This document shows, in pieces, positions 18,789 through 33,296 of a DNA stretch of 42,970 bases. Position 1 is the stretch's first letter, and the number at the start of each line of letters is the position of its first letter. Location of the stretch: NCBI GenBank assembly GCA_033720735.1, contig JAWWBX010000004.1, positions 1 through 42,970 on the forward strand, given 5' to 3'. The notes under the pieces are model-generated. The model made no database searches. It was not told the origin of the DNA and saw nothing but the letters and a program-made list of their open reading frames with translations. This stretch comes from Saprospiraceae bacterium (GTDB lineage: Bacteria; Bacteroidota; Bacteroidia; Chitinophagales; Saprospiraceae). The position numbers and the translations under genes are program-made.

Positions 18789-18995
18789 GATAAATGATGA
18801 AGGACGGCTAAAATATCGATTATCTGTCAGGCGGCCGGATTCAATCTTCGATCGGTCTCAAACACTCGACAAACCCCGATTTGCGACTGACCTGACAAGA
18901 CTGTGAACATCCCTGCTTGTTTTCCGAACATGACTGCAGGCCCTGCAACAGTGACTCCCGCAACTTTGGGATATGTCATCCAAAAACACATTCAA

Positions 18996-19550
18996 ATGAA
19001 AAATTCTGCTGATTCAATGATCATGTTCATTTGCACATTCTTTACACTCTTGATCGCCGGGGACTTTTCTTCTTGCGGTGGTGCGCGGACTGTCGCATGC
19101 GAAGACCGCGATGAACCTACATCCGTCGTACATTTTACGAACAAGACGCCTGACTATTGGAGAGTGCTGGCCGTGGGTTCCGACAAGAGCTGGTCTGGCC
19201 ACTTTGACCATGTCGAAAGCGGAACGTACACAGGTTGGGCCAAAGCTCTTCCGGTCTCGATCGTGGCGGACACGACCACCTACATCTTCGAGCGCGCAGG
19301 ATCTGCCGACACATTGTCATTCACCTATGTCAGGGACATCCGCTTCGAATCCCCGGATTGTGGGTTTACTGTGACCCTGCAAGAGCTGCGCTTGACCGAG
19401 GCATCGACCTTTCGCGATGTGGAGTTTACCGTGCACACCGGTACCGGGAGAGCGCCTTCGCGCCCCGAAGGCCTCACCACCGCACATCTTCCTGCGGCGA
19501 GCTTCCATCTTGGTAATAACATCTATCAGATCACAATCGGTGATGAATAG
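18996..19550 (+). CDS. hypothetical exported protein or lipoprotein
   Basis: The track ORF starts with GTG at 18903. An ATG at 18996 gives MKNSADSMIMFICTFFTLLIAGDFSSCGG, a signal peptide with a Cys. No recognisable domain. Confidence 0.4.
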   Translation: MKNSADSMIMFICTFFTLLIAGDFSSCGGARTVACEDRDEPTSVVHFTNKTPDYWRVLAVGSDKSWSGHFDHVESGTYTGWAKALPVSIVADTTTYIFERAGSADTLSFTYVRDIRFESPDCGFTVTLQELRLTEASTFRDVEFTVHTGTGRAPSRPEGLTTAHLPAASFHLGNNIYQITIGDE

Positions 19551-19602
19551 GCAGGTCCTGCATCAGATCGCGGTCAGCAATGATCATCTAAAAAACGGTA
19601 AC

Positions 19603-20259
19603 ATGGCAACGACAACACCTCCGTTCAAAAGCATCCTCCTTCCGTTTGTGATCATGTTTTGCAGCATGACACTGACAAGCCAGGAACACTCCAACGGATA
19701 CATCGGCATCCGGTTGGCAGGCAATGACTTCAGCGGCACGACCAGGCATGATCTCGACGATACCGAGATCAAGTTTGACAAACGTACCAATATTGAGATC
19801 CTCGGAGCGCGCAGGATTTCGCAGGGGCTTCTGATCAGGGTGTCAGTCGGGTATACACAAGTGGAAGAGAAGCGCCTGTATGTCAATTACGACTATCGCC
19901 ATAGTGGTGTATACACCCGGATAGGGATTGTCGCGGACAGCGAATTGGACACGCGCTTTGCACTGCATCCCGGACTGGCTCTCTACTATGCCAAATTCGC
20001 TGAACGCGGGACATACACCTTGACAGGCCAGAGTTTTGGTGATCTCACGGGGCAAGTGCGAAGAGGTCTTCATGCCTTCTCCCTCGAACCGCACCTGGAC
20101 CTGCGGTTAAGGCTCATGCAACGCCTTGCGTTGCAGACTTCCTTCAAGTATAATTGGCTGTTGACAAGATCCAAACCCGATTCGCATCCGGTCATCCATA
20201 TACCCGGCCGGGGTATGAAGGATGTGGGTCTGGATCTTTCCCTGGTCTATCAGTTCTAG
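19603..20259 (+). CDS. small outer-membrane beta-barrel protein (OmpA-like, ~8 strands)
   Basis: Signal peptide MATTTPPFKSILLPFVIMFCSMTLTSQE, amphipathic alternating beta-strand segments, and a C-terminal ...LSLVYQF ending in Phe, the typical OMP sorting signal. Confidence 0.45.
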   Translation: MATTTPPFKSILLPFVIMFCSMTLTSQEHSNGYIGIRLAGNDFSGTTRHDLDDTEIKFDKRTNIEILGARRISQGLLIRVSVGYTQVEEKRLYVNYDYRHSGVYTRIGIVADSELDTRFALHPGLALYYAKFAERGTYTLTGQSFGDLTGQVRRGLHAFSLEPHLDLRLRLMQRLALQTSFKYNWLLTRSKPDSHPVIHIPGRGMKDVGLDLSLVYQF

Positions 20260-20396
20260 TCCCCTCCCGACCCGTGAATTGAGATGATGCAATGGATACC
20301 GTGCTTTCCATATCTCGTCTCCGGTTACATCCCCGTATCTTTGGAGCGATCCTTGTAACACGATTGTGGATGTCCGGTACTGGGCATTGGTAGTCA

Positions 20397-20404
20397 TACA
20401 TTTG
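20397..20404 (+). promoter_or_regulatory. Bacteroidota-type -7 promoter element TAcaTTTG (TAnnTTTG) upstream of deoC
   Basis: gtcaTACATTTGagca lies 56 nt upstream of the homology-defined deoC ATG (20460). No clean -33 TTTG is present. Confidence 0.35.
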
Positions 20405-20459
20405 AGCAATGGGGACGGTAAAGGAAAAACATCGCAGCAATGGCAAGAACCTGCCAGGC

Positions 20460-21413
20460 ATGGAGCAAAAGCGCAATGAGGGGGTTCCGCTGGATCTCGA
20501 CCTGATCAATGAGACGCTGGTCAATCGCAGCGCAGTAGAACGGCGCGCAGCAACGATGGGCAAACGTCGCTCGATCAAAAAGGAGTGGCAGGCCGCCTGG
20601 CTGTTGCGGGCTGTAACGTGCATTGATCTGACAACACTGGCGGGTGATGATACGCCGGGTAATGTGCAGCGCCTGTGTGCAAAAGCCCTGCATCCCGTGC
20701 GCCGCGACCTGCTCGACGCCCTGGGCATGGCCGATGCGGGTCTGACGGTCGCTGCTGTCTGCGTTTATCACAATCTCATCGCCGAGGCCAGGAAAGCGCT
20801 GAAGGGTACCAATCTGCCCATCGCCGCTGTCTCAACCGGTTTTCCGGCCGGCCAGATCCCCCTCAAGGAGAAATTGAAACAGATCAAATTGTCCGTCGCA
20901 GCCGGAGCTTCCGAGATCGACATCGTGATCAGTCGCGCACATGTGCTCCGGTCAGACTGGAAGAATCTCTACAAGGAAGTCGCTCTCTGCCGGGAAGCCT
21001 GCGGTGAGGCGCATATGAAGACCATCCTGGCGACGGGTGAAATTCCCACCCTGACCAAGGTGGCGCGGGCCAGCCAGGTGGCGATGATGGCAGGGTCCGA
21101 TTTCATCAAGACCAGCACCGGCAAGGAAAGCGTCAACGCCACACTTCCTGTATCCCTGGTCATGATCCGCGCCATTCGTGATTACTACGAACGGACAGGA
21201 TACAAAGTGGGGTTCAAGCCGGCCGGAGGTATCCGCAAGGCGAAACAAGCCCTTGAATGGCTCATCCTGATGAAAGAAGAACTCGGCAATGACTGGCTGA
21301 GTCCGGACCTTTTTCGCTTTGGAGCCAGCGGGTTGCTCAGCGATATTGAACGCCAACTCGAACACCATGTCACCGGACGCTATTCCGCGTCATACCGTCA
21401 TCCCATGTCCTAA
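20460..21413 (+). CDS. deoC: deoxyribose-phosphate aldolase, long eukaryote-type (DERA-like) form
   Basis: Near-colinear identity with animal DERA over the whole length (KKEWQAAWLL, IDLTTL, GDDT, QRLC, FPAGQ, GEAH.KTILATGE, MMAGSDFIKTSTGKE.VNAT, GFKPAGGIR, LLSDIERQ..HHVTGRY). The homology-based start is MEQKRNEG at 20460; the track start is 20409. Confidence 0.9.
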   Translation: MEQKRNEGVPLDLDLINETLVNRSAVERRAATMGKRRSIKKEWQAAWLLRAVTCIDLTTLAGDDTPGNVQRLCAKALHPVRRDLLDALGMADAGLTVAAVCVYHNLIAEARKALKGTNLPIAAVSTGFPAGQIPLKEKLKQIKLSVAAGASEIDIVISRAHVLRSDWKNLYKEVALCREACGEAHMKTILATGEIPTLTKVARASQVAMMAGSDFIKTSTGKESVNATLPVSLVMIRAIRDYYERTGYKVGFKPAGGIRKAKQALEWLILMKEELGNDWLSPDLFRFGASGLLSDIERQLEHHVTGRYSASYRHPMS

Positions 21414-21424
21414 ACTGACCCCCA

Positions 21425-23812
21425 ATGAAAGTCAAGAAGATCTTCGAAACAATGGAATACGGACCGGCACCGGAAAGCCCGGATGCCGCGCAGGACTGGC
21501 TTGCCGGGCATGATCGCAAATTCCAGTTGTTTATCAATGGCAAATGGACGTCGCCACAGAGTAAGAAGTATTTCGACAGCATCAATCCCTGTGACACCAG
21601 CAAGCTGGCCAGGATCGCCGAGGCCAACGACAAGGATGTCAACAAGGCAGTGCGCGCAGCACGCAAGGCCCTAGCCGGCTGGCTGGAGATCGGGCCGCAC
21701 CAGCGCGCACGCTATTTGTATGCCATTGCCCGCCAGATCCAGAAACACTCGCGTCTCTTTGCCGTCCTCGAATCTCTGGACAATGGCAAGCCGATCCGTG
21801 AGACGCGCGATATTGACATTCCCCTGGTCGCCAGGCATTTCTATCACCATGCCGGCTGGGCACAGTTGATGGAATCCGACCTCAGGGATTATCGACAAGT
21901 CGGGGTGGTCGGTCAGATCATCCCCTGGAATTTCCCGCTGCTGATGCTGGCGTGGAAGATCGCACCAGCCCTGGCCATGGGCAATACCGTCGTACTCAAG
22001 CCAGCAGAGTTTACCTCCCTCACGGCATTGCTATTTGCCGAGATCTGCCAGAACATCGGCCTGCCCCCGGGAGTGGTCAACATCCTCACCGGTGCCGGCA
22101 AGACCGGCGCGGCGATCGTGGATCATCCCGATATCGACAAGATCGCCTTCACCGGCTCCACCGAAGTGGGGCGGATCATCCGGCATGCTACCGCCGGATC
22201 GGGCAAGAAGCTGTCGCTGGAGCTGGGTGGCAAGTCGCCTTTCATTGTGTTTGAGGACGCCGACCTGGACAGCGTGGTCGAGGGCGTGGTAGACGCCATC
22301 TGGTTCAACCAGGGGCAGGTGTGCTGTGCCGGCTCACGACTGTTGGTACAGGAAAGTGTGGCCGACCGGCTCTACCGCAAGATTCGGGCGCGGATGGAAA
22401 AATTGCGCATGGGCAATGCGCTCGACAAAGGCATTGACATCGGCGCCATTGTGGCACCGGTCCAGCTTAAAACGATCACCGAATTGGTGCAGCAGGGCAT
22501 CGCGGAAGGGAGTACCTGCTGGCAGCCCTCATGGGCGGTGCCCCGGGACGGGTACTTCTACCCTCCTACCCTGTTTACAGATGTCTCGCCGAGCTCCACC
22601 ATTGCACAGGTCGAGATCTTTGGGCCGGTACTGGTGGCCATGACCTTCCGTTCGCACAACGAGGCGATACGATTAGCCAACAACACACGCTACGGACTGG
22701 CCGCCAGTGTCTGGACGGAGAATATCAACCTCGCACTCGACATTGCGCCAAAAGTGAAGGCTGGCACCGTCTGGATCAATTGTACCAACGTGTTTGATGC
22801 TGCCTCCGGGTTTGGCGGCTATCGCGAATCAGGCTTTGGCCGCGAAGGTGGCCGGGAAGGATTGTTTGAGTATGTCAAACCGCTCATCGAGGACAACCTG
22901 CTCGACAAACCGCCCGGTCCGGCGTATCAAACAGCGCAGAAAAAGCGCCCGTCGGCACCGGAGGATGGAATGGACAGAACGGCCAAAATGTATATTGGCG
23001 GACGACAGGTGCGACCGGACGGTGGTTACAGTATGACCGTGCGCAGCGCCAGCGGCCTGTATCTGGGAGAGGTCTCCAAAGGCAACCGCAAGGATATCCG
23101 GAATGCCGTGGAAGCCGCCCACGCCGGAAGCCAGTGGGACGCCATGACAGGACATGCCAGGGCGCAGGTGCTCTACTACCTGGCCGAAAACCTCTCTGCG
23201 CGCCAGGCAGAGTTCGCGTTGCGACTGGCCGAGCAACTCGAAGTGGATATGGATCAGGCCAATCTGGAGGTCAGGTCTTCTATCGAACGCATCTATACCT
23301 ATGCCGCCTGGGCCGACAAGTACGACGGCCGTGTGCACCATACCACCCAGCGCATGGTGACCCTGGCGATGCCCGAACCCATCGGGGTAATGGCAGTGAT
23401 TTGCCCCGACCATGCACCGCTGCTTGGCTTCATTTCGACTGTCATCCCTGCGATCACCATGGGCAACCGGGTTGTCGTGGTACCCTCGCAGCTTGCCCCG
23501 CTTTCGGCCACTGACCTCTATCAGGTCCTGGAAACCTCGGATGTGCCCGCAGGGACCATCAATATCGTGACGGGTGCGCATGCCGAGCTGATGCCGGTGC
23601 TCGCCAAACATGATGATGTGGACGGGATCTGGTATTTCGGCTCAAAGGAGGGAAGCAAGGAGGTTGAAATGCTCTCCGCCGACAACATGAAGCGGACCTG
23701 GGTCAACAATGGCAAGTTCCGCGACTGGTTTGATCCGGCACATGGTGAAGGCGAGATGTTCCTGCGCAAAGCCAGCCAGATCAAGAATATCTGGGTTCCG
23801 TACGGGGCTTAG
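21425..23812 (+). CDS. ALDH16-family aldehyde dehydrogenase (full catalytic ALDH domain plus C-terminal ALDH16-specific domain)
   Basis: 795 aa. Residues 1-~505 form a complete ALDH with catalytic Glu (LELGGKSP) and Cys (QGQVCCAGSR) and an NAD-binding GxxxxG. Residues ~520-795 form a second, partial ALDH-like Rossmann region with no catalytic Cys or Glu, the architecture described for ALDH16. Confidence 0.85.
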   Translation: MKVKKIFETMEYGPAPESPDAAQDWLAGHDRKFQLFINGKWTSPQSKKYFDSINPCDTSKLARIAEANDKDVNKAVRAARKALAGWLEIGPHQRARYLYAIARQIQKHSRLFAVLESLDNGKPIRETRDIDIPLVARHFYHHAGWAQLMESDLRDYRQVGVVGQIIPWNFPLLMLAWKIAPALAMGNTVVLKPAEFTSLTALLFAEICQNIGLPPGVVNILTGAGKTGAAIVDHPDIDKIAFTGSTEVGRIIRHATAGSGKKLSLELGGKSPFIVFEDADLDSVVEGVVDAIWFNQGQVCCAGSRLLVQESVADRLYRKIRARMEKLRMGNALDKGIDIGAIVAPVQLKTITELVQQGIAEGSTCWQPSWAVPRDGYFYPPTLFTDVSPSSTIAQVEIFGPVLVAMTFRSHNEAIRLANNTRYGLAASVWTENINLALDIAPKVKAGTVWINCTNVFDAASGFGGYRESGFGREGGREGLFEYVKPLIEDNLLDKPPGPAYQTAQKKRPSAPEDGMDRTAKMYIGGRQVRPDGGYSMTVRSASGLYLGEVSKGNRKDIRNAVEAAHAGSQWDAMTGHARAQVLYYLAENLSARQAEFALRLAEQLEVDMDQANLEVRSSIERIYTYAAWADKYDGRVHHTTQRMVTLAMPEPIGVMAVICPDHAPLLGFISTVIPAITMGNRVVVVPSQLAPLSATDLYQVLETSDVPAGTINIVTGAHAELMPVLAKHDDVDGIWYFGSKEGSKEVEMLSADNMKRTWVNNGKFRDWFDPAHGEGEMFLRKASQIKNIWVPYGA

Positions 23813-23892
23813 GGATATGAGCCTGCCTGTCCGAGGCGGAGGGTTCAAGGATTCAAAGATTGATTGCCGGCAGGCAGACTCGAGGAATCATC

Positions 23893-24591
23893 TCAAGCCA
23901 GGGAGAGGGCAATGTGCATCATGTCGGTAAATGATTGCTCGCGTTCTTCCGCCGAAGCGGCCTCTCCGGTAAGGATATTGTCACTGACAGTCACCACCGA
24001 CAGAGCCCGGGCTCCGAAGCGCGCTGCCAGCGTATAGAGCATTTTCGTTTCCATCTCCACGGCAAGCACACCGTGCTGTGTCCACTTGTCCCAGCGGTGG
24101 GGGTCACCGTCATAGAAAATGTCCGTGCTGAAGATCGATCCCTGCAAGGTCGGGATGCCCAGGTCTTGTGCCGTCTGATACGCCTTCATCAACAGCGAGA
24201 AATCAGCCGTTGCGGCAAAGTCCTTACCTCCAAAGAAAAGCTGGTTGACGTTCGAATCGCCCGAGGCACTCATGGCCAGAATGACCTGGCCGATCTTGAG
24301 TTTCTGTTGGATGGCGCCACAAGTCCCGACACGCACCAACTGTTTGACTCCGTACTCATTGAGCAATTCGTTGACATAGATGCCGAGGCTGGGCATCCCC
24401 ATCCCCGAGCCCTGGATTGAGACACGTTGCCCCTGGTAAGTACCGGTGTAACCAAACATGCCGCGCACCCGGTTGTAGCACTCGGCATCTTCGAGCAGGG
24501 TTTCGGCCACGTGCCTTGCCCGCAGCGGATCTCCGGGCAACAACACGGTCTCCGCAATCTGGCCCGGTTTCGCTTCTAGATGTAAACTCAT
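23893..24591 (-). CDS. deoD: purine nucleoside phosphorylase, DeoD type (hexameric NP-I family)
   Basis: [25 protein letters not shown]...[11 protein letters not shown]...VRVGTCGA... matches DeoD. The track start at 24678 is GTG; the ATG at 24591 gives 232 aa. Confidence 0.9.
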
Positions 24592-24717
24592 GGATGACGT
24601 TGCAGTCGTTCGCTCCTCTTGCTGCAAGAATGTTACCAAATCGCCCAACAAACGGAAAATGGACCGAAAATTGCACACTATGTCCGGAAGTCAGACTGTC
24701 CACTACAGCACAGATCC

Positions 24718-25599
24718 ATGCCTGCACCACTATCACCATCCGAACTGATCGTCAATCCGGATGGCAGCATCTACCATCTGAATCTGCGACCGGAGCAGAT
24801 CGCACCAACGGTCATATTGGTGGGCGACATGGGGCGCGTAGCGCGCATCAGCCGGCATTTTGATCACATCGAGCACATCGTTCAACGACGGGAATTCCTC
24901 ACCCATACCGGCACCTGCGGTGGCATACCGGTTTCCGTGCTTTCGACCGGGATCGGCACCGACAATATCGATATCGTCATCAACGAACTGGATGCCGCTG
25001 TCAATATCGATCTGCGTACCAGGGAGATCCGTGCGCACCGCAAGTCACTCAATCTCATTCGCATTGGAACCTCCGGGGCTCTGCAGCCAGACATTCCGGT
25101 GGGCACACCGGTCGTCTCAGAGTACGGGCTGGGATTCGATGGCCTGCTTTATTACTACGACTTCGACTACTCCCAAGACGAGCTCGAAACAATGCGCGCC
25201 TTTGGCGAACAGGTAAAGTGGCCCGAGGCGCTTGCCAAACCCTACCTGGTGCGGTGTGCACCGGAGCTGATGTCGGTGATCGGCAGGGACATGCCCAGCG
25301 GGATCACGGCGACGGCGACAGGTTTTTACGGGCCGCAGGGGCGGAGGCTCTACCTGACGCCCCGGGATACTACGCTCAATCAGCAGCTCACCGATTTTCG
25401 CCATGGTCGTCTGCGGGTGATGAACTATGAAATGGAAACCTCGGCGCTCTACGGTCTGGGGCGTCTTATGGGGCATCGCTGCCTGACATGTTGTGCCGTC
25501 ATCGCCAACCGCATTCGGCAGGAGTACAGCCAAGATCCCAAGGTGGTTGTTGATCAGCTGATCGAAGTCGTCCTCGACAGGCTGAAAGATCTGCACTGA
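24718..25599 (+). CDS. nucleoside phosphorylase, PNP/UDP family 1 (uridine-phosphorylase-like)
   Basis: YHLNL, VILVGDMGRV, STGIG, RIGTSGALQP and MNYEMETSALYGL parallel E. coli Udp (FHLGL, AIVPGDPDRV, STGIG, RIGTTGAIQP, MNYEMESATL). The track start at 24619 is TTG; the ATG is at 24718. Confidence 0.7.
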   Translation: MPAPLSPSELIVNPDGSIYHLNLRPEQIAPTVILVGDMGRVARISRHFDHIEHIVQRREFLTHTGTCGGIPVSVLSTGIGTDNIDIVINELDAAVNIDLRTREIRAHRKSLNLIRIGTSGALQPDIPVGTPVVSEYGLGFDGLLYYYDFDYSQDELETMRAFGEQVKWPEALAKPYLVRCAPELMSVIGRDMPSGITATATGFYGPQGRRLYLTPRDTTLNQQLTDFRHGRLRVMNYEMETSALYGLGRLMGHRCLTCCAVIANRIRQEYSQDPKVVVDQLIEVVLDRLKDLH

Positions 25600-25634
25600 G
25601 CAGGAAAGAGCCATGGCCGCCAGCCACGCAGGTA

Positions 25635-25649
25635 CTGATCACAGATCAG
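25635..25649. promoter_or_regulatory. 15-bp perfect palindrome CTGATC-ACA-GATCAG downstream of the udp-like gene and upstream of the small-ORF/cytochrome operon
   Basis: Read directly: ggtaCTGATCacaGATCAGctgtcgg. A TAtTTTG-like element sits at about 25726-25732, just before the small ORF. Confidence 0.35.
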
Positions 25650-25737
25650 CTGTCGGTGTGCCCCATCTCTTGGTCAGGACCCTCCACGTGTCGTGCTTTG
25701 GTCTTTGGTTTACGTCCGTCCTGTGTATTTTGCGCGC

Positions 25738-25914
25738 ATGAAAGAACGCCGACGCCGCGGCTGGTTGCTGATCATTATGGGGGTGATCATGTTGATGACG
25801 CATTTCCTGCAACTCGACAGGGTGTTCATCCTGGGTGGCGTTCTTTTCGTGGCGCTGGGCTGTGCTGAGCTGTTTGGCAACAACCGGTACCGGCGCAAAT
25901 ACCGCAGCAAATGA
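25738..25914 (+). CDS. small (58 aa) two-helix membrane protein, translationally coupled to the downstream cytochrome
   Basis: MKERRRRGWLLIIMGVIMLMTHFLQLDRVFILGGVLFVALGCAELFGNNRYRRKYRSK has a basic N-terminus, two hydrophobic segments and a basic C-terminus. Its stop overlaps the cytochrome ATG (ATGA). It could instead start at the internal Met (MGVIM). Confidence 0.4.
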   Translation: MKERRRRGWLLIIMGVIMLMTHFLQLDRVFILGGVLFVALGCAELFGNNRYRRKYRSK

Positions 25915-27887
25915 AAACGCCGCGACGCGTTCCACAGACCACCGTCACCGCTCTGCTCGTGCTCGGAGCATGCCTCCTGCTGGCCATGAGCCCTTTGCGC
26001 AACCGTAATCACGACCGGTTTTACAGCGCCGAAGCGTTGCACGCCTATCTGGCAAACAGCCCTTTTCTACCCACCCTGGAAGACGTCAGCTACTTCGCAG
26101 ATGACAGCGTTTGCGGCGGATGTCACGGATTCGACCCGATCGCTTTCAGCATGGTAGACGATGACGGCCGCGACGTCAATGTCTACGATGACTGGCGTAC
26201 CTCGATGATGGCCAACTCGGCGAAAGATCCGTTCTGGCGCGCCAAAGTGAGTCAGGAGATCGCGGTCAACCCCGGTCATAGCCTGGAACTACAGACCAAG
26301 TGCACGTCGTGTCATGCACCGCAGGGACATTTTACGGCGATGGCACAGGGCGCCACCCACTACACCATTGCGGAGATGCTTGCCGATTCGGTCGCCCTCG
26401 ACGGCGTCTCGTGTGGCGCCTGTCACAGCACCAGCCTGCAGCACCTGGGCAATCGCTTTTCCGGCGAGATGTATTTTGACACCAACCGGGTCATCTACGG
26501 ACCCTATACTGAGCCATTCGCCGCCCCGATGACGGACTTCGTCGGCTTTGAGCCGGTGTACAGCCCCCACATCCATGATGCCGGCATCTGCGCATCATGC
26601 CATACCCTGATCACCGCATCGGTTGACCTGGACGGCAATCCGACGGGGACCGAATTTATCGAGCAGGCCACCTACCACGAATGGCTCAACAGCGACTTTG
26701 CGGACGACGGGCTGACCCCCGTGACGTGTCAGGGGTGCCACATGCCGCAGTTGGCTGATTCAATTGTGATCTCCTCCCAGTATTTGTTCCTCAAAGGACG
26801 CAGCCCGTATGGCTTGCACGACCTTGTCGGCGGCAACACGATGATGCTGCAATTGATGAAAAACAACAAGGAAGCACTGGGGATCCGCGCTCCAGACTCG
26901 CTGTTTGACGAAACCATTGCCAAAACATTTGACATGCTTCGGCAGCAGACGCTCGATCTGAGCCTCGACTTTACCGGGCAGGACGGGGACACTGCATACT
27001 TCGACGTGGCGCTCTTCAACAAGTCCGGCCATAAATTCCCTTCCGGCTACCCGTCACGCAGGGCGTTCATCGAGCTTTGGGCCACCACCGAAACCGGAGA
27101 TACCCTCTTCCACAGCGGAAGCCTGGGCACGGATTTCGAAATTACCGGACAGGATGATGCGATAGAACCTCATCACCGCACGATCCGATCACAGGACGCC
27201 GTGCAGATCTACGAAATGGTGCCGGCCGATGTCAACGGTGCGTTTACAACGATCCTCGAACGCGCCTTCATGACGCTCAAAGACAACCGCCTGCCCCCCC
27301 GTGGCTTTACCACCGGCCATCCGACGTATGACACCACCCGGATCTACGGTGCAGCCCTCAACGATCCGGACTTCAACCATAACGGGAGTGAAGGATCGGG
27401 CTCAGACGTAGTTGGCTATCACATCCCCGTGCATGATTATGAAGGCATGTTGCAGGTGACTGCACGCGTGCACTATCAGTCATTGCCCCCAAAGTGGATG
27501 GCGCCATTGTTTGCCATGAGCACTCCTGAGATCGAGACGTTTCGTAGCATGTACGACCAGGCAGATTTGTCGACCGTGATCATCGCAGAACAGCGCCTGG
27601 ACAGCATTGCCATATCACCCCCAACCTCCGTGCAAGCTCATCTGCGGCCTGAGGTATTGTCGGTCTATCCCAATCCCGTTCGGGACGGCGTTCTGTACAT
27701 CGCCAATCCGACGGGAGCGCCTGTTTCGCGCATCCGGATCCATGATGCCAGCGGACGATTGACAAATACCTTCCAGGGTTTTCAACCAGCGGTGCGTCTT
27801 CCTGACGATCCCCAACTGTATTTTGTGATCATCGAGACAGAAGACGGTACTGTTGCGCACAGGGTCGTGCGCTTGCCTCAGCAGTGA
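25911..27887 (+). CDS. secreted pentaheme c-type cytochrome with a T9SS C-terminal sorting domain
   Basis: Signal peptide, then five CxxCH motifs (CGGCH, CTSCH, CGACH, CASCH, CQGCH) in the first ~270 aa. A ~300 aa non-heme domain follows, then a type-A T9SS CTD (VYPNPVRDGVLYIANPTGAPVSRIRIHDASGRL...LYFVIIETEDGTVAHRVVRL). Confidence 0.85.
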   Translation: MKTPRRVPQTTVTALLVLGACLLLAMSPLRNRNHDRFYSAEALHAYLANSPFLPTLEDVSYFADDSVCGGCHGFDPIAFSMVDDDGRDVNVYDDWRTSMMANSAKDPFWRAKVSQEIAVNPGHSLELQTKCTSCHAPQGHFTAMAQGATHYTIAEMLADSVALDGVSCGACHSTSLQHLGNRFSGEMYFDTNRVIYGPYTEPFAAPMTDFVGFEPVYSPHIHDAGICASCHTLITASVDLDGNPTGTEFIEQATYHEWLNSDFADDGLTPVTCQGCHMPQLADSIVISSQYLFLKGRSPYGLHDLVGGNTMMLQLMKNNKEALGIRAPDSLFDETIAKTFDMLRQQTLDLSLDFTGQDGDTAYFDVALFNKSGHKFPSGYPSRRAFIELWATTETGDTLFHSGSLGTDFEITGQDDAIEPHHRTIRSQDAVQIYEMVPADVNGAFTTILERAFMTLKDNRLPPRGFTTGHPTYDTTRIYGAALNDPDFNHNGSEGSGSDVVGYHIPVHDYEGMLQVTARVHYQSLPPKWMAPLFAMSTPEIETFRSMYDQADLSTVIIAEQRLDSIAISPPTSVQAHLRPEVLSVYPNPVRDGVLYIANPTGAPVSRIRIHDASGRLTNTFQGFQPAVRLPDDPQLYFVIIETEDGTVAHRVVRLPQQ

Positions 27888-29651: not shown

Positions 29652-30878
29652 ATGCGTTTCTTCCAGACTCTCCGCAACATTGGTCCGGGTGCCATGGTTG
29701 CTGCCGCCTTTATCGGGCCGGGCACCGTGACCACCGCCACCATTGCAGGTGCCAGCTTCGGCTACACGCTGCTTTGGGCTATTGTCTTCTCCATTCTGGC
29801 GACCCTCCTGCTGCAGGAAATGTCTGCCCGACTGGGGATCGTCAGCGGCATGGGCGTTGGGGATGCCGTAAGGAGGAAACTGCATGGCAAAGTGTCTTTC
29901 ATCCTGGCCGCATGCCTGATCATTGCAGCCATCCTCATCGGCAACGCGGCGTACGAGGCCGGCAACATTACCGGGGCGGTACTCGGCTTCGAACAGTATG
30001 CCGAGCGGTTTGCAGAGTGGCCGGTCAATCCACTGGTGATGGCCATCGGCGTAGTGGCGTTTCTGCTTTTGTTCAGCGGCACCTTCAGATTGATCGAGCG
30101 GTCGCTGATCCTGATGGTAAGTGTCATGGGTGTCGTGTTTCTGGTGTCAGCATTCCTGCTCAAGCCTGATCTCGGCGAGGTCATTGCGCATATGTTCATT
30201 CCACAGCTTCCGGATGATGCCCTGCTGGCCGTCATTGGCCTGATTGGCACAACCGTCGTGCCCTACAACCTGTTTTTGCACGCCTCGTCGGTCCGGCATC
30301 GCTGGTCTGATCCGTCACAACTGCCAGCAGCCCGCTGGGACACCATCTTGTCGGTCGTCCTGGGAGGGATCATCACCATGGCAATCCTGATCTGTGCCGC
30401 CGCTGCTTTCGATGGCAGCGCCCGGAGTGTGGACAGTGCGGCCGACCTGGCTGCACAGCTCACCCCCATTCTGGGTGACTGGTCGTTGGCATTCATTGCC
30501 ATCGGATTTCTCGCAGCAGGCCTTTCATCATCCGTTACCGCCCCATTGGCGGCGGCTTTTGCGACTTCGGAGATACTCGGATGGGGCAATGATCTGAGGG
30601 GCGGCAGGTTCCGGTTGATCTGGTTGTTCGTTCTGGTTTGCGGGATCGTGTTCTCATCACTTGGGTTACGTCCTACCAGCGTGATCCTCTTTGCGCAAGT
30701 CGCAAACGGACTGTTGCTCCCCGTCATTGCCATCTTTCTGCTGTGGATCATGAACGACCACGCCATCATGGGTGCACATCGCAACCGACCCTGGGCCAAC
30801 GCATTCGGTGTGATCGTCATCTGTGTCACCATCGGCCTGGGGCTACGCGGCATCCTGTCGGCAGCCGGTGTTCTCTAA
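29652..30878 (+). CDS. mntH: NRAMP-family divalent metal-cation transporter
   Basis: IGPGAMVAAAFIGPGTVTT parallels the MntH DPGN region. 11-12 TM helices; 408 aa. Confidence 0.88.
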   Translation: MRFFQTLRNIGPGAMVAAAFIGPGTVTTATIAGASFGYTLLWAIVFSILATLLLQEMSARLGIVSGMGVGDAVRRKLHGKVSFILAACLIIAAILIGNAAYEAGNITGAVLGFEQYAERFAEWPVNPLVMAIGVVAFLLLFSGTFRLIERSLILMVSVMGVVFLVSAFLLKPDLGEVIAHMFIPQLPDDALLAVIGLIGTTVVPYNLFLHASSVRHRWSDPSQLPAARWDTILSVVLGGIITMAILICAAAAFDGSARSVDSAADLAAQLTPILGDWSLAFIAIGFLAAGLSSSVTAPLAAAFATSEILGWGNDLRGGRFRLIWLFVLVCGIVFSSLGLRPTSVILFAQVANGLLLPVIAIFLLWIMNDHAIMGAHRNRPWANAFGVIVICVTIGLGLRGILSAAGVL

Positions 30879-30896
30879 ATGCGGTAATTTGAACGC

Positions 30897-31661
30897 ATGG
30901 TGCACATTGACATCAACTGTGATATGGGTGAAAGCTACGGCAGGTTTGAGCTGGGCGACGACGCTGCTATCTTTCCTTATATCACTTCCTGTAACGTCGC
31001 GTGCGGGATGCACGGCGGCGACCCGCTGACCATCGACCGAACGATTCGCAATGCCCTGACCCACGGAGTACAGATCGGCGCCCATCCCGCTTTTCCCGAC
31101 CTGATGGGATTCGGGCGGCGGACCATGCACCTCCCTGCCGACGAGCTGCAGGCGTTGGTCAAGTATCAGATCGCAGCGGTGAAAGGCATGACAGAAAGCG
31201 TGGGCGGCCGCCTTCGTTATGTCAAACCACACGGGGCACTGTACAACCTGGCTGCTGATGACCCGGATACATCCCGGGTGATCTTGCAGGCCATGCAGGA
31301 GATCGATGCAGAACTGACCCTGATGGGAATGGCCGGGAGCATTACCGAGCAGGTGGCGCGTGAGCATGGCGCATCCTTCGTAGCGGAAGCATTCGCTGAC
31401 CGTCGCTACACGGATACGGGCCGATTGGTCAGCCGGTCACAGGCTGGCGCCGTCATCAGCGATCCGGCCGAGGCGGTACAGCAGGTGATCAACATCGTGA
31501 CCCAGGCACATGTGGTCAGTCACAACGGGGTACAGGTCCCAGTTCACGCACAGACCATCTGTATCCACGGAGACAACCCTGCGGCGACGGCCATCCTTCA
31601 GGCCATCGATGCGGCGCTGGTCAAACACAATGTACTCAAGCAAGCATTTGCTGTTCAATGA
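30897..31661 (+). CDS. pxpA: 5-oxoprolinase subunit A (LamB/YcsF family)
   Basis: MVHIDINCDMGESYG...NVACGMHGGDP...GAHPAFPD is the LamB/YcsF signature. Confidence 0.9.
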   Translation: MVHIDINCDMGESYGRFELGDDAAIFPYITSCNVACGMHGGDPLTIDRTIRNALTHGVQIGAHPAFPDLMGFGRRTMHLPADELQALVKYQIAAVKGMTESVGGRLRYVKPHGALYNLAADDPDTSRVILQAMQEIDAELTLMGMAGSITEQVAREHGASFVAEAFADRRYTDTGRLVSRSQAGAVISDPAEAVQQVINIVTQAHVVSHNGVQVPVHAQTICIHGDNPAATAILQAIDAALVKHNVLKQAFAVQ

Positions 31662-32371
31662 AGATCGTTCCACTTGGCACCGAGGCACTGCTGGTTGATT
31701 TCGGACATGTCATCTCCCCAGCGGTGAATGGACTTGCCATCTCACTCGCTCGTCAGGTCGAGCAAGCTGATCTGCCGGGGGTGCGCTTCTGTGCACCGGC
31801 ATATGCTTCAGTGACAGTAGGGTTCGATCCACGCGTGACAACGTTTGACACCCTCGCACAGAAGGTAAAGTCCCTTGTTCCACTGGTCAGCGAGGTCGCC
31901 GGCGCCACAGAGCGACCAACCTGGCGCATCCCCGTTTGCTACCATGAGCGCTACGCACCTGATCTGTCGGATGTGCTTCAACATACCGGGCTTGAGTGGG
32001 AAGAGCTGATCGCCCTGCATTCCGGCAGGTCATACCGCGTTTACATGCTTGGTTTCCTGCCGGGATTCACCTACCTGGGCTCGGTGGACGCACGGCTGGT
32101 CATGCCACGCAAAGCACAGCCTCGCACCCGCGTGCCTGCTGGATCAGTCGGGATCGCCGGCGAACAAACGGGCATCTACCCCGTGCAGGCTCCAGGCGGA
32201 TGGCAACTGATTGGCCGCACTCCGGTCCGCACGTTCGATCCCGAAAGTAGCGAGCCGTTTCTGATCCAGCCTGGCGACCACGTACGTTTTGAACCGGTGG
32301 CGCCCTCTGAGTTCGAAGCACTGGCAAACGCCGTTGTCGCTGGCACCTACACCCTTGCGAGCGATGGCTGA
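31658..32371 (+). CDS. pxpB: 5-oxoprolinase subunit B (KipI / allophanate-hydrolase subunit 1 family)
   Basis: A cyclophilin-like KipI domain. ATGA overlap with pxpA. Confidence 0.8.
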   Translation: MKIVPLGTEALLVDFGHVISPAVNGLAISLARQVEQADLPGVRFCAPAYASVTVGFDPRVTTFDTLAQKVKSLVPLVSEVAGATERPTWRIPVCYHERYAPDLSDVLQHTGLEWEELIALHSGRSYRVYMLGFLPGFTYLGSVDARLVMPRKAQPRTRVPAGSVGIAGEQTGIYPVQAPGGWQLIGRTPVRTFDPESSEPFLIQPGDHVRFEPVAPSEFEALANAVVAGTYTLASDG

Positions 32372-33296
32372 GGTGATCACACTTCAATTCATGAAGCCCG
32401 GGATGCAGACACTGGTGCAGGACCTGGGCCGCGCAGGATGCCAGGCTTTCGGTGTACCGGTGGGAGGCGCGCTGGATCGCGGTGCTGCGATCACGGCCAA
32501 TCGGTTGGTGGGCAACCCTCCAACCAGCCCTCTTCTTGAGATCGCTCTCGCCGGCCCCGATATTGCCGTGCACGATGCATGCACCGTGGCCATTACGGGA
32601 GGCGCGACGCGGCCCATGTACAACAGCCAACCCCTGCCACTGGGAAAACCTGTCTCGTTGGAGGCAGGCGGCGTGCTGACCTTTGCCTATCCACAGGAAG
32701 GGAGCCACGGATACCTGGCGGTGGGTGGTGAATGGGAGGTGTCCGGCTGGCTGGGCAGCGTGAGCCCGCTCCTCTATAGCCCCGAGGTCACCCCAGGCAG
32801 CCGGCCGGTACGGGGCAGCTTCCTCAAAATCCATCGACGGCCGTCAACGTTTGATGTCCGACCTGTCACACTCACAACTGACTACCCTGACCATCTCGAG
32901 ATCGCCGTAGTGCCCGGGCCCGAGTTGAACCGGCTTCCCGCAACGTCCATTCAGGTGTTGTTCAGTGAGAGATTTACCGTCGGCCGGCACATCAACAGGA
33001 TGGGGATACGCCTTGAAGAGTCCGTGCGCCGGGCTTCCGTTTCGAAGCCATTCATCTCGTCGGGCGTGGTTCCGGGGACGGTGCAGTTGACCCGCTCGGG
33101 CAAACCCGTCATTCTGCTGGCGGATGCACAAACCACCGGCGGATATCCGCGCATCTTGCAAGTCATAACTCCTGAGCTTGACCGTCTGGCGCAGGTCAGG
33201 CCCGGCAACACCCTCTCTTTCCGGCAGATGACCCATGAACGGGCCACAGAGCTGACAGTTGCCTACCTGGAGCGCTATCAATTTCCCGTACCCTGA
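32364..33296 (+). CDS. pxpC: 5-oxoprolinase subunit C (KipA / allophanate-hydrolase subunit 2 family)
   Basis: KPGMQTLVQDLGRAGCQAFGVPVGGALD is the KipA N-terminus. The start ATG overlaps the pxpB stop (ATGGCTGA). The track start at 32289 is upstream of this. Confidence 0.8.
   Translation: MAEVITLQFMKPGMQTLVQDLGRAGCQAFGVPVGGALDRGAAITANRLVGNPPTSPLLEIALAGPDIAVHDACTVAITGGATRPMYNSQPLPLGKPVSLEAGGVLTFAYPQEGSHGYLAVGGEWEVSGWLGSVSPLLYSPEVTPGSRPVRGSFLKIHRRPSTFDVRPVTLTTDYPDHLEIAVVPGPELNRLPATSIQVLFSERFTVGRHINRMGIRLEESVRRASVSKPFISSGVVPGTVQLTRSGKPVILLADAQTTGGYPRILQVITPELDRLAQVRPGNTLSFRQMTHERATELTVAYLERYQFPVP

Follow-up and report, generated by a model that had tools for sequence, protein, structure and literature searches.

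Conserved adjacency and natural fusions suggest a partnership between ALDH16 aldehyde dehydrogenases and long-type deoxyribose-phosphate aldolase

The stretch of DNA analyzed here (the window) covers positions 1 to 42,970 of the forward strand of contig JAWWBX010000004.1, from the Saprospiraceae bacterium assembly GCA_033720735.1. It carries a gene for a long-type deoxyribose-phosphate aldolase (DERA, the product of deoC), followed on the same strand by a gene for a 795-residue aldehyde dehydrogenase (ALDH) of the ALDH16 family, and beyond these lie genes for a DeoD-type purine nucleoside phosphorylase and for a uridine phosphorylase-like (udp-like) protein (Table 1). A preliminary description of the locus had read the four genes as one nucleoside and deoxyribose catabolic module, and had proposed that the ALDH16 enzyme oxidizes acetaldehyde or another deoxyribose-derived aldehyde. 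ALDH16 is an orphan branch of the ALDH superfamily, to which no physiological substrate or pathway has been assigned in the searchable literature.

Table 1. Genes, protein domains and intergenic features at the deoC–ALDH16 locus (window coordinates).
Feature	Coordinates	Strand	Basis
Long-type deoC (DeoC/DERA), 334 aa	20409-21413	+	TIGR00126
deoC–ALDH16 spacer, 11 nt, deoC stop to ALDH16 start codon	21414-21424	+	Coordinates of the open reading frames
ALDH16, whole open reading frame, 795 aa	21425-23812	+	Pfam Aldedh twice; PDB 6MVR full length
ALDH16 N-terminal catalytic ALDH module, aa 1-485, NAD-binding and catalytic domains	21425-22879	+	Pfam Aldedh aa 41-484; 6MVR and 1ZUM alignments
ALDH16 interdomain linker, ~aa 486-510, weakly conserved	22880-22954	+	Column conservation
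ALDH16 C-terminal domain, aa 511-795, Rossmann-like copy of the NAD-binding half without a catalytic domain	22955-23812	+	6MVR ~494-767
DeoD-type purine nucleoside phosphorylase, 232 aa, convergent with ALDH16	23893-24591	-	NF004489, TIGR00107; start codon from sequence
deoD/udp-like divergent intergenic region, 126 nt, with palindrome TCTTGC-T-GCAAGA at 24617-24629	24592-24717	.	Sequence
udp-like phosphorylase, PNP_UDP_1 superfamily, 293 aa	24718-25599	+	Pfam PF01048

The 795-residue protein is, as judged from alignment, a bona fide ALDH16 (cd07111) and an ordinary member of this known family. It matches the ALDH16 of Loktanella sp. from end to end (PDB 6MVR; residues 1–795 on 2–767, E = 1.1e-287), contains two stretches that match Pfam Aldedh, the better of which spans residues 41–484, and reaches no NCBIfam equivalog cut-off (for ExaC, 486.5 versus 900). 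Alignments with 6MVR and with ALDH2 (PDB 1ZUM) place a full catalytic set at Asn169, Glu266 and Cys300, the equivalents of Asn165, Glu261 and Cys295 of 6MVR, and the counterparts of Lys192, Glu195 and Glu399 are present as well. The first cysteine of the QVCC motif, which is an alanine in 6MVU, occupies the position that a review gives as the catalytic Cys295. The catalytic Asn and Cys never vary among 114 bacterial ALDH16 sequences, and the Glu is kept in 113. From these residues we predict that the window ALDH16 carries out NAD+-dependent aldehyde oxidation, with Glu195 suggesting NAD+ as the cofactor.

A two-domain architecture with a noncatalytic C-terminal domain is the hallmark of the ALDH16 family. 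The C-terminal domain of the window protein aligns to the corresponding domain of 6MVR rather than to any other fused enzyme; it shows ~28–30% identity to the N-terminal NAD-binding half of ALDH16 proteins, bears no likeness to other parts of ALDHs, and holds no catalytic residues. Column conservation is 0.72 across this domain and 0.79 across the N-terminal module, with ~0.25–0.47 in the linker between them. The family assignment, the complete catalytic domain with its Cys and Glu, and the truncated second ALDH-like Rossmann region, all of which the preliminary description had put forward, are thus borne out by the match to 6MVR. At the extreme N-terminus, residues 1–18 (21425–21480; IFETMEYGPAPES) are kept from bacteria to a primate ALDH16A1 (IFTSLEYGPVPES); the N-termini of ALDHs are usually less conserved than this.

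The closest structural reference is the Loktanella enzyme, whose structures (6MVR, 6MVS, 6MVT and 6MVU) were reportedly described by Liu and Tanner in 2019. It shares with the window protein the three-domain architecture, the catalytic Asn, Glu and Cys, and the Rossmann-like C-terminal domain, but is 767 rather than 795 residues long, the window protein, from a member of the Saprospiraceae (Bacteroidota), having the longer interdomain linker. ALDH2 aligns over residues 34–485 with ~398 bits. Unlike the ALDH2/ALDH1 class, ALDH16 carries an additional C-terminal domain. According to the literature it is also dimeric instead of tetrameric, with a dimer (6MVR) that mimics the classic ALDH tetramer.

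The deoC product scores 144.9 bits on TIGR00126 (curated cut-off 117.3), and alignment with E. coli DERA (PDB 5EKY) identifies the equivalents of Cys47, Asp102, Lys167 and Lys201, which are invariant among 150 ALDH16-linked DeoC sequences. E. coli DERA aligns only from residue 65 onward (~147 bits), leaving an N-terminal extension of ~64 residues that is missing in the E. coli enzyme and common to animal DERA. The DERA part of a tick protein (P0322) is 53% identical to window DeoC, in an alignment that begins inside the extension, at residue 24. We assign window DeoC on these grounds to a long, animal- or eukaryote-like DERA subtype. The extension (residues 1–64; 20409–20600), with the motif SAVERRA...RRS(V/I)KK.WQAAWLL, ranks with the most strongly conserved regions of the ALDH16-linked subfamily, and is a candidate docking element. 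A homolog search with window DeoC was dominated by near relatives and returned no eukaryotes and no fusions. In E. coli DERA, Cys47 mediates irreversible inactivation by acetaldehyde-derived crotonaldehyde; since this residue is conserved here, there is a rationale for an acetaldehyde-consuming enzyme tightly coupled to DERA.

We surveyed the linkage of the two genes from both sides. For the ALDH16-found sample, one genome per GTDB species was scanned, giving at least 598 relatives, of which the best 80 were taken (61–76% identity). The deoC-found sample comprised 80 metagenome contigs with a relative of window DeoC, 71 of them with readable downstream sequence. All linkage counts come from tblastn; greedy clustering of open reading frames under-called deoC in high-GC genomes owing to antisense frames. 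A long-type deoC (63–78% identity) lies immediately upstream on the same strand in ~70 of the 80 ALDH16-found loci, while two others end at a contig edge. The positive loci belong to at least eight phyla (Bacteroidota, Gemmatimonadota, Chloroflexota, Acidobacteriota, Myxococcota, Pseudomonadota, Verrucomicrobiota and SAR324). Reciprocally, ALDH16 is found immediately downstream of deoC on 65 of 71 contigs, one gene away on two more, and not at all on four. The distance from deoC stop to ALDH16 start has a median of 15 nt (129 junctions), and in the case of the divergent ALDH16 P0123, a DeoC with 62% identity to that of the window lies 12 nt ahead of it. The linkage between ALDH16 and deoC is near-obligate, whichever gene is used to find the loci.

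Other deo genes are far less regular companions, occurring within 6 kb of the pair in 22/80 genome loci and 12/80 metagenome loci, mainly in Bacteroidota and Proteobacteria. They encode pyrimidine-nucleoside phosphorylase (NF004747, 582 bits versus a cut-off of 559), phosphopentomutase (NF003766, 537 versus 256), DeoD and the udp-like protein, and a typical Bacteroidota order on a single strand is deoB-deoA-deoC-ALDH16-deoD. For this reason, the conserved core is the two-gene unit deoC–ALDH16, and the phosphorylases are lineage-specific additions. Of the module proposed at the outset, the 11-bp spacing between a DERA-type deoC and ALDH16 is as described and the co-occurrence with deoC is general, whereas the company of deoD and the udp-like gene is a minority arrangement. 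Among the variants, a Rhodobacteraceae metagenome-assembled genome (L079), from what we take to be the family of Loktanella, has deoB-deoC-ALDH16. The complete genome of Labrys okinawensis (CP178864.1; L172 155-7397) has, in this order, genes for a zinc alcohol dehydrogenase, an FGGY kinase, a SorC/DeoR-type sugar-binding regulator, DeoC and ALDH16, and this locus may be a variant deoxyribose-utilization operon with a non-canonical kinase.

The two proteins also occur as single chains. With the ALDH16 C-terminal domain as query against representatives of 50%-identity clusters, we obtained 307 clusters (E ≤ 1e-30), among them a protein of 1142 residues (P0131; L161 108-3536) composed of DeoC, Aldedh and the ALDH16 C-terminal domain, and a search with this protein gave further full-length fusions (P0283, P0284, which is annotated as from a Rhodospirillales metagenome-assembled genome, P0285 and P0310). 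The DeoC–ALDH16 fusions with intact catalytic residues are 1130–1164 residues long (P0284, L162 8001-11495; P0285, L164 8001-11393; P0131; P0310, L166 101-3571). P0284 and P0285 are uninterrupted open reading frames on bacterial contigs of at least 225 kb that recur in NCBI, JGI and Logan assemblies, and both lie in the shared order HisRS ... fusion ... SufE, ClpX on alphaproteobacterial-type contigs, with no other deo genes nearby. Other fusion partners of long-type DeoC (in P0317, P0394, P0401, P0411, P0412) are a phosphopentomutase-type metalloenzyme domain, a PNP_UDP_1 phosphorylase and phosphoglucomutase/phosphomannomutase domains, which fits with a role of DeoC in nucleoside catabolism.

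Two further fusions (P0288, L165 644-3892; P0376, L167 1866-5030) differ in that the DERA residues Cys47, Asp102, Lys167 and Lys201 are intact while Asn169, Cys302 and the aromatic box are gone from the ALDH16 part, as is Glu268 in P0288; the C-terminal domain is kept in both. P0376 was assembled on eight contigs, which derive from several sequencing runs, and its gene context is bacterial. Judging by these losses, the two proteins would be a prokaryotic parallel to the animal ALDH16A1 pseudoenzyme. As to the junction in the fusions, the ALDH16 N-terminus joins the DERA C-terminus either directly or through a linker of 10–12 residues. A DeoC+ALDH protein filed under 'Artemia franciscana' (P0309), together with P0291 and P0396, was set aside as evidence, these proteins being chimeric, truncated or frameshifted and bacterial in appearance.

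To describe the substrate pocket, the window protein was mapped to ALDH2 numbering through the 1ZUM alignment and each position was scored in the 114 bacterial ALDH16 sequences. Asn169, Phe170, Met174, Trp177, Phe296, Cys302, Cys303 and Phe465 do not vary, and 112 of the sequences have Phe459; all nine are shared with ALDH2, as is a bulky residue at position 124, which in ALDH16 is Leu or Ile. Position 301 is Val. The tunnel mapped in this way is narrow, hydrophobic and ALDH2-like, and would suit short aliphatic aldehydes, in agreement with the aromatic-box pocket and the activity with aliphatic aldehydes such as hexanal that a review reports for the Loktanella enzyme (PMC12041015). ALDH16 departs from ALDH2 at the tunnel mouth, where an invariant Asp replaces Phe292 and an invariant Asn replaces Asp457.

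Taken together, we consider it probable (roughly 70%) that deoC and ALDH16 form a catabolic unit in which ALDH16 oxidizes the acetaldehyde released by DERA. The two-way linkage and the natural fusions argue for the tie between ALDH16 and DERA-dependent (deoxy)nucleoside catabolism that the preliminary description had suggested. In the proposed scheme, nucleoside phosphorylases (here DeoD and the udp-like protein) would free (deoxy)ribose-1-phosphate, a phosphopentomutase encoded elsewhere in the genome would convert it to deoxyribose-5-phosphate, and long-type DERA would split the latter into glyceraldehyde-3-phosphate and acetaldehyde. ALDH16 would then turn acetaldehyde into acetate and NADH, probably with NAD+. 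The cell would benefit in that a toxic and volatile product is removed, a thermodynamically unfavorable cleavage is pulled forward, and DERA is protected.

There is precedent for such an arrangement. In DmpFG, MhpEF and BphIJ, an acetaldehyde-releasing aldolase is coupled genetically and physically to the dehydrogenase that consumes its product, and the intermediate is channelled between them. Those systems pair metal-dependent class II aldolases with CoA-acylating dehydrogenases of a different fold family, whereas the pair in the window, as known from its genes, combines a class I Schiff-base aldolase with a non-acylating enzyme of the ALDH superfamily, for which a physical complex or channelling would be an analogous possibility. 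The logic of the pathway is that of E. coli deoCABD and B. subtilis dra-nupC-pdp, in which phosphorylases and phosphopentomutase feed DERA. In contrast to these operons, the window has a long, eukaryote-like DERA and a convergent deoD, and to our knowledge the classical deo operons of E. coli and B. subtilis contain no aldehyde dehydrogenase, acetaldehyde being handled by unlinked enzymes.

Several points weigh against the acetaldehyde-oxidizing unit. Because two fusion lineages keep DERA and have lost the catalytic residues of ALDH16, oxidation is not the whole reason for the partnership. The Asp and Asn at the tunnel mouth could mean that the substrate is more polar than acetaldehyde. In the searched literature we found no acetaldehyde kinetics for any ALDH16, hexanal being the only reported substrate, and that by way of a review. 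No deoC lies within 6 kb in 7 of the 80 ALDH16-found loci (~9%, mostly Chloroflexota), and a search for a replacement aldolase beside these genes returned unrelated neighbors only. Both locus samples consist of homologs at least ~61–66% identical to the window proteins. Finally, neither deoA nor deoB was found in the 43-kb window, which leaves the pathway locally incomplete.

One alternative, which would accommodate the loss of catalytic residues, is that ALDH16 serves DERA mainly through physical contact, be it as scaffold, as channel or by regulating the aldolase, with oxidation secondary and losable. Animal ALDH16A1, which likewise has no catalytic Cys, and the strong conservation of the DERA N-terminal extension in the ALDH16-linked subfamily point in the same direction. 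An AlphaFold2 model of one fusion (P0285; mean predicted local distance difference test score, pLDDT, 89.7; predicted template-modeling score, pTM, 0.87) has a structured junction that would fit a defined arrangement of the two enzymes, but a single-chain pTM is weak evidence for an interface, and the model consisted of confidence values without coordinates. Only two such dead fusion lineages were found, however, and in the 114 unfused bacterial proteins the catalytic and pocket residues are essentially invariant, which indicates strong selection for catalysis. We regard a chiefly physical role as unlikely, although it survives better than any other alternative to the acetaldehyde-oxidizing unit.

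A much less probable alternative is that ALDH16 acts on another deoxyribose-derived aldehyde, open-chain deoxyribose or deoxyribose-5-phosphate, and so opens a deoxyribonate branch. The locus does belong to deoxyribose catabolism, the tunnel mouth, with its invariant Asp and Asn, might bind a substrate with hydroxyl groups, and other bacteria have oxidative deoxyribose pathways, but the known pathway uses other enzyme families and proceeds without DERA (PMC6365646). In addition, the inner tunnel is hydrophobic and ALDH2-like, and an ALDH16 that oxidized the substrate of DERA would compete with its own fusion partner. Slightly less credible still is a general detoxifier of medium-chain or lipid-derived aldehydes for which the neighboring deoC has no functional meaning. 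This would account for the reported hexanal activity and for those ALDH16 genes that stand alone, but since adjacency reaches ~90% by either ascertainment, across at least eight phyla, with tiny gaps and recurrent fusions, chance or hitch-hiking fails as an explanation. Oxidation of glyceraldehyde-3-phosphate to 3-phosphoglycerate, in the manner of the non-phosphorylating ALDH-superfamily enzyme GAPN, is the least plausible of all: genomic linkage alone cannot separate the two DERA products, of which glyceraldehyde-3-phosphate is one, but at positions 124, 301 and 459, where GAPN of S. mutans has the arginines that bind the phosphate of this substrate, all or almost all 114 sequences have Leu/Ile, Val and Phe, the pocket is an aromatic, hydrophobic tunnel, and glyceraldehyde-3-phosphate enters glycolysis directly anyway.

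In addition to oxidizing acetaldehyde, ALDH16 may be a physical partner of DERA, as the dead-ALDH16 bacterial fusions and the long type of animal DERA indicate. A primate ALDH16A1 is 35% identical to the window protein over its full length, and keeps the C-terminal domain and an N-terminal IF..(M/L)EYGP.PE motif. Animal ALDH16A1 has lost the catalytic Cys and other active-site residues that the window protein retains; its reported roles are in protein binding (HPRT1, thioredoxin), and in vertebrates, including humans, it is a pseudoenzyme that has been linked to gout and serum urate. One could imagine that long-type DERA and ALDH16 form a complex that has outlived catalysis, that animals inherited both, and that ALDH16A1 still binds or regulates DERA; the dead-ALDH16 fusions (P0288, P0376), the conserved N-terminal extension of DERA and the confidently packed P0285 model lend this some support. 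We hold this extension to be doubtful, yet it names DERA as a specific candidate partner for the animal pseudoenzyme. If it were true, the association of ALDH16A1 with gout and urate would be tied to flux through deoxynucleoside and pentose-phosphate breakdown. That connection is a speculative hypothesis, which gains some substance because animal DERA is of the long type and a dead ALDH16 is fused to DERA in bacteria.

In the searchable literature, from whose coverage the primary ALDH16 papers are missing, no paper ties ALDH16 to DERA, deoC or deoxyribose, and the proteins co-occur just in proteomics lists. Accessible reviews up to 2025 present bacterial ALDH16 without a physiological role, and describe the Loktanella enzyme by its structure and model aldehydes without assigning it to a physiological pathway. 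Gene-neighborhood databases may already display the deoC–ALDH16 link uncommented. What is new here is the conserved DERA–ALDH16 unit, its fusions and the functional lead they provide, while the window protein itself is a member of a known family. The pairing supplies the family with a testable function, the removal of acetaldehyde during cleavage of deoxyribose-5-phosphate. It could also bear on biocatalysis: DERA is an industrial enzyme limited by acetaldehyde inactivation, and natural DERA–ALDH16 couples may show the remedy used by cells.

The remaining genes of the proposed module required more revision. DeoD is assigned with confidence by its scores (NF004489, 344.1 bits versus a cut-off of 230; TIGR00107, 303.5 versus 232.25), but it lies on the minus strand, and its gene does not extend to 24678 because homology begins at Met30 of that open reading frame. 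The start of the udp-like gene is most likely the ATG at 24718 and not the TTG at 24619. Its product is uridine phosphorylase-like in belonging to PF01048, but since it falls below the uridine phosphorylase cut-offs (TIGR01718, 116.9 versus 280.3; NF008383, 81.9 versus 262) we treat it as a member of the PNP_UDP_1 superfamily rather than a certified uridine phosphorylase; among solved structures it is closest to 3BJE (E = 5e-30), a putative nucleoside phosphorylase, and not to the enterobacterial uridine phosphorylases. With deoD convergent to ALDH16 and the udp-like gene diverging from deoD, the four genes cannot be one transcript here, and a four-gene operon is not supported; the only closely spaced same-strand genes among them are deoC and ALDH16, 11 nt apart. 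The divergent deoD/udp-like pair recurs in four other loci (L011, L014, L019, L042), relative to which the pair in the window is inverted. It is conserved in several Bacteroidota, in either orientation relative to ALDH16.

The palindrome previously given as CTTGC-T-GCAAG does exist in the divergent region and is slightly longer than described. The window has a single copy of it, the matching deoD/udp-like intergenic regions of L011, L014, L019 and L042 do not conserve it, and it is absent upstream of deoC; for these reasons it was rejected as an operator. A promoter and terminator scan of 20000–26000, which does not cover Bacteroidota promoters, gave counts not above shuffled expectation and no intergenic site. 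In the 80 nt that separate the convergent ALDH16 and deoD genes lie inverted arms of 7 nt, CTGCCTG ... CAGGCAG (23821–23877), around a loop of ~40 nt; they do not form a canonical intrinsic terminator.

The rest of the window holds housekeeping or unrelated genes, including those for Lon, Obg, PRPP synthetase, a tricorn-type protease, a multihaem cytochrome, Nramp, 5-oxoprolinase subunits and a Cu-ATPase. Immediately upstream of deoC are two overlapping open reading frames with DUF6452 and DUF6048 (an outer-membrane beta-barrel-like domain) at 18903–20259. Adjoining the nucleoside genes on the other side, 25911–27887 encodes a secreted multihaem c-type cytochrome of 658 residues, with Cytochrome_C7 and MtrC-like matches and a C-terminal sorting domain of the type IX secretion system, a noteworthy combination of domains. 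Further along (29652–33296), an Nramp transporter precedes a PxpABC-type 5-oxoprolinase set, made up of LamB/YcsF and the two proteins with carboxyltransferase domains, and a heavy-metal P-type ATPase comes next.

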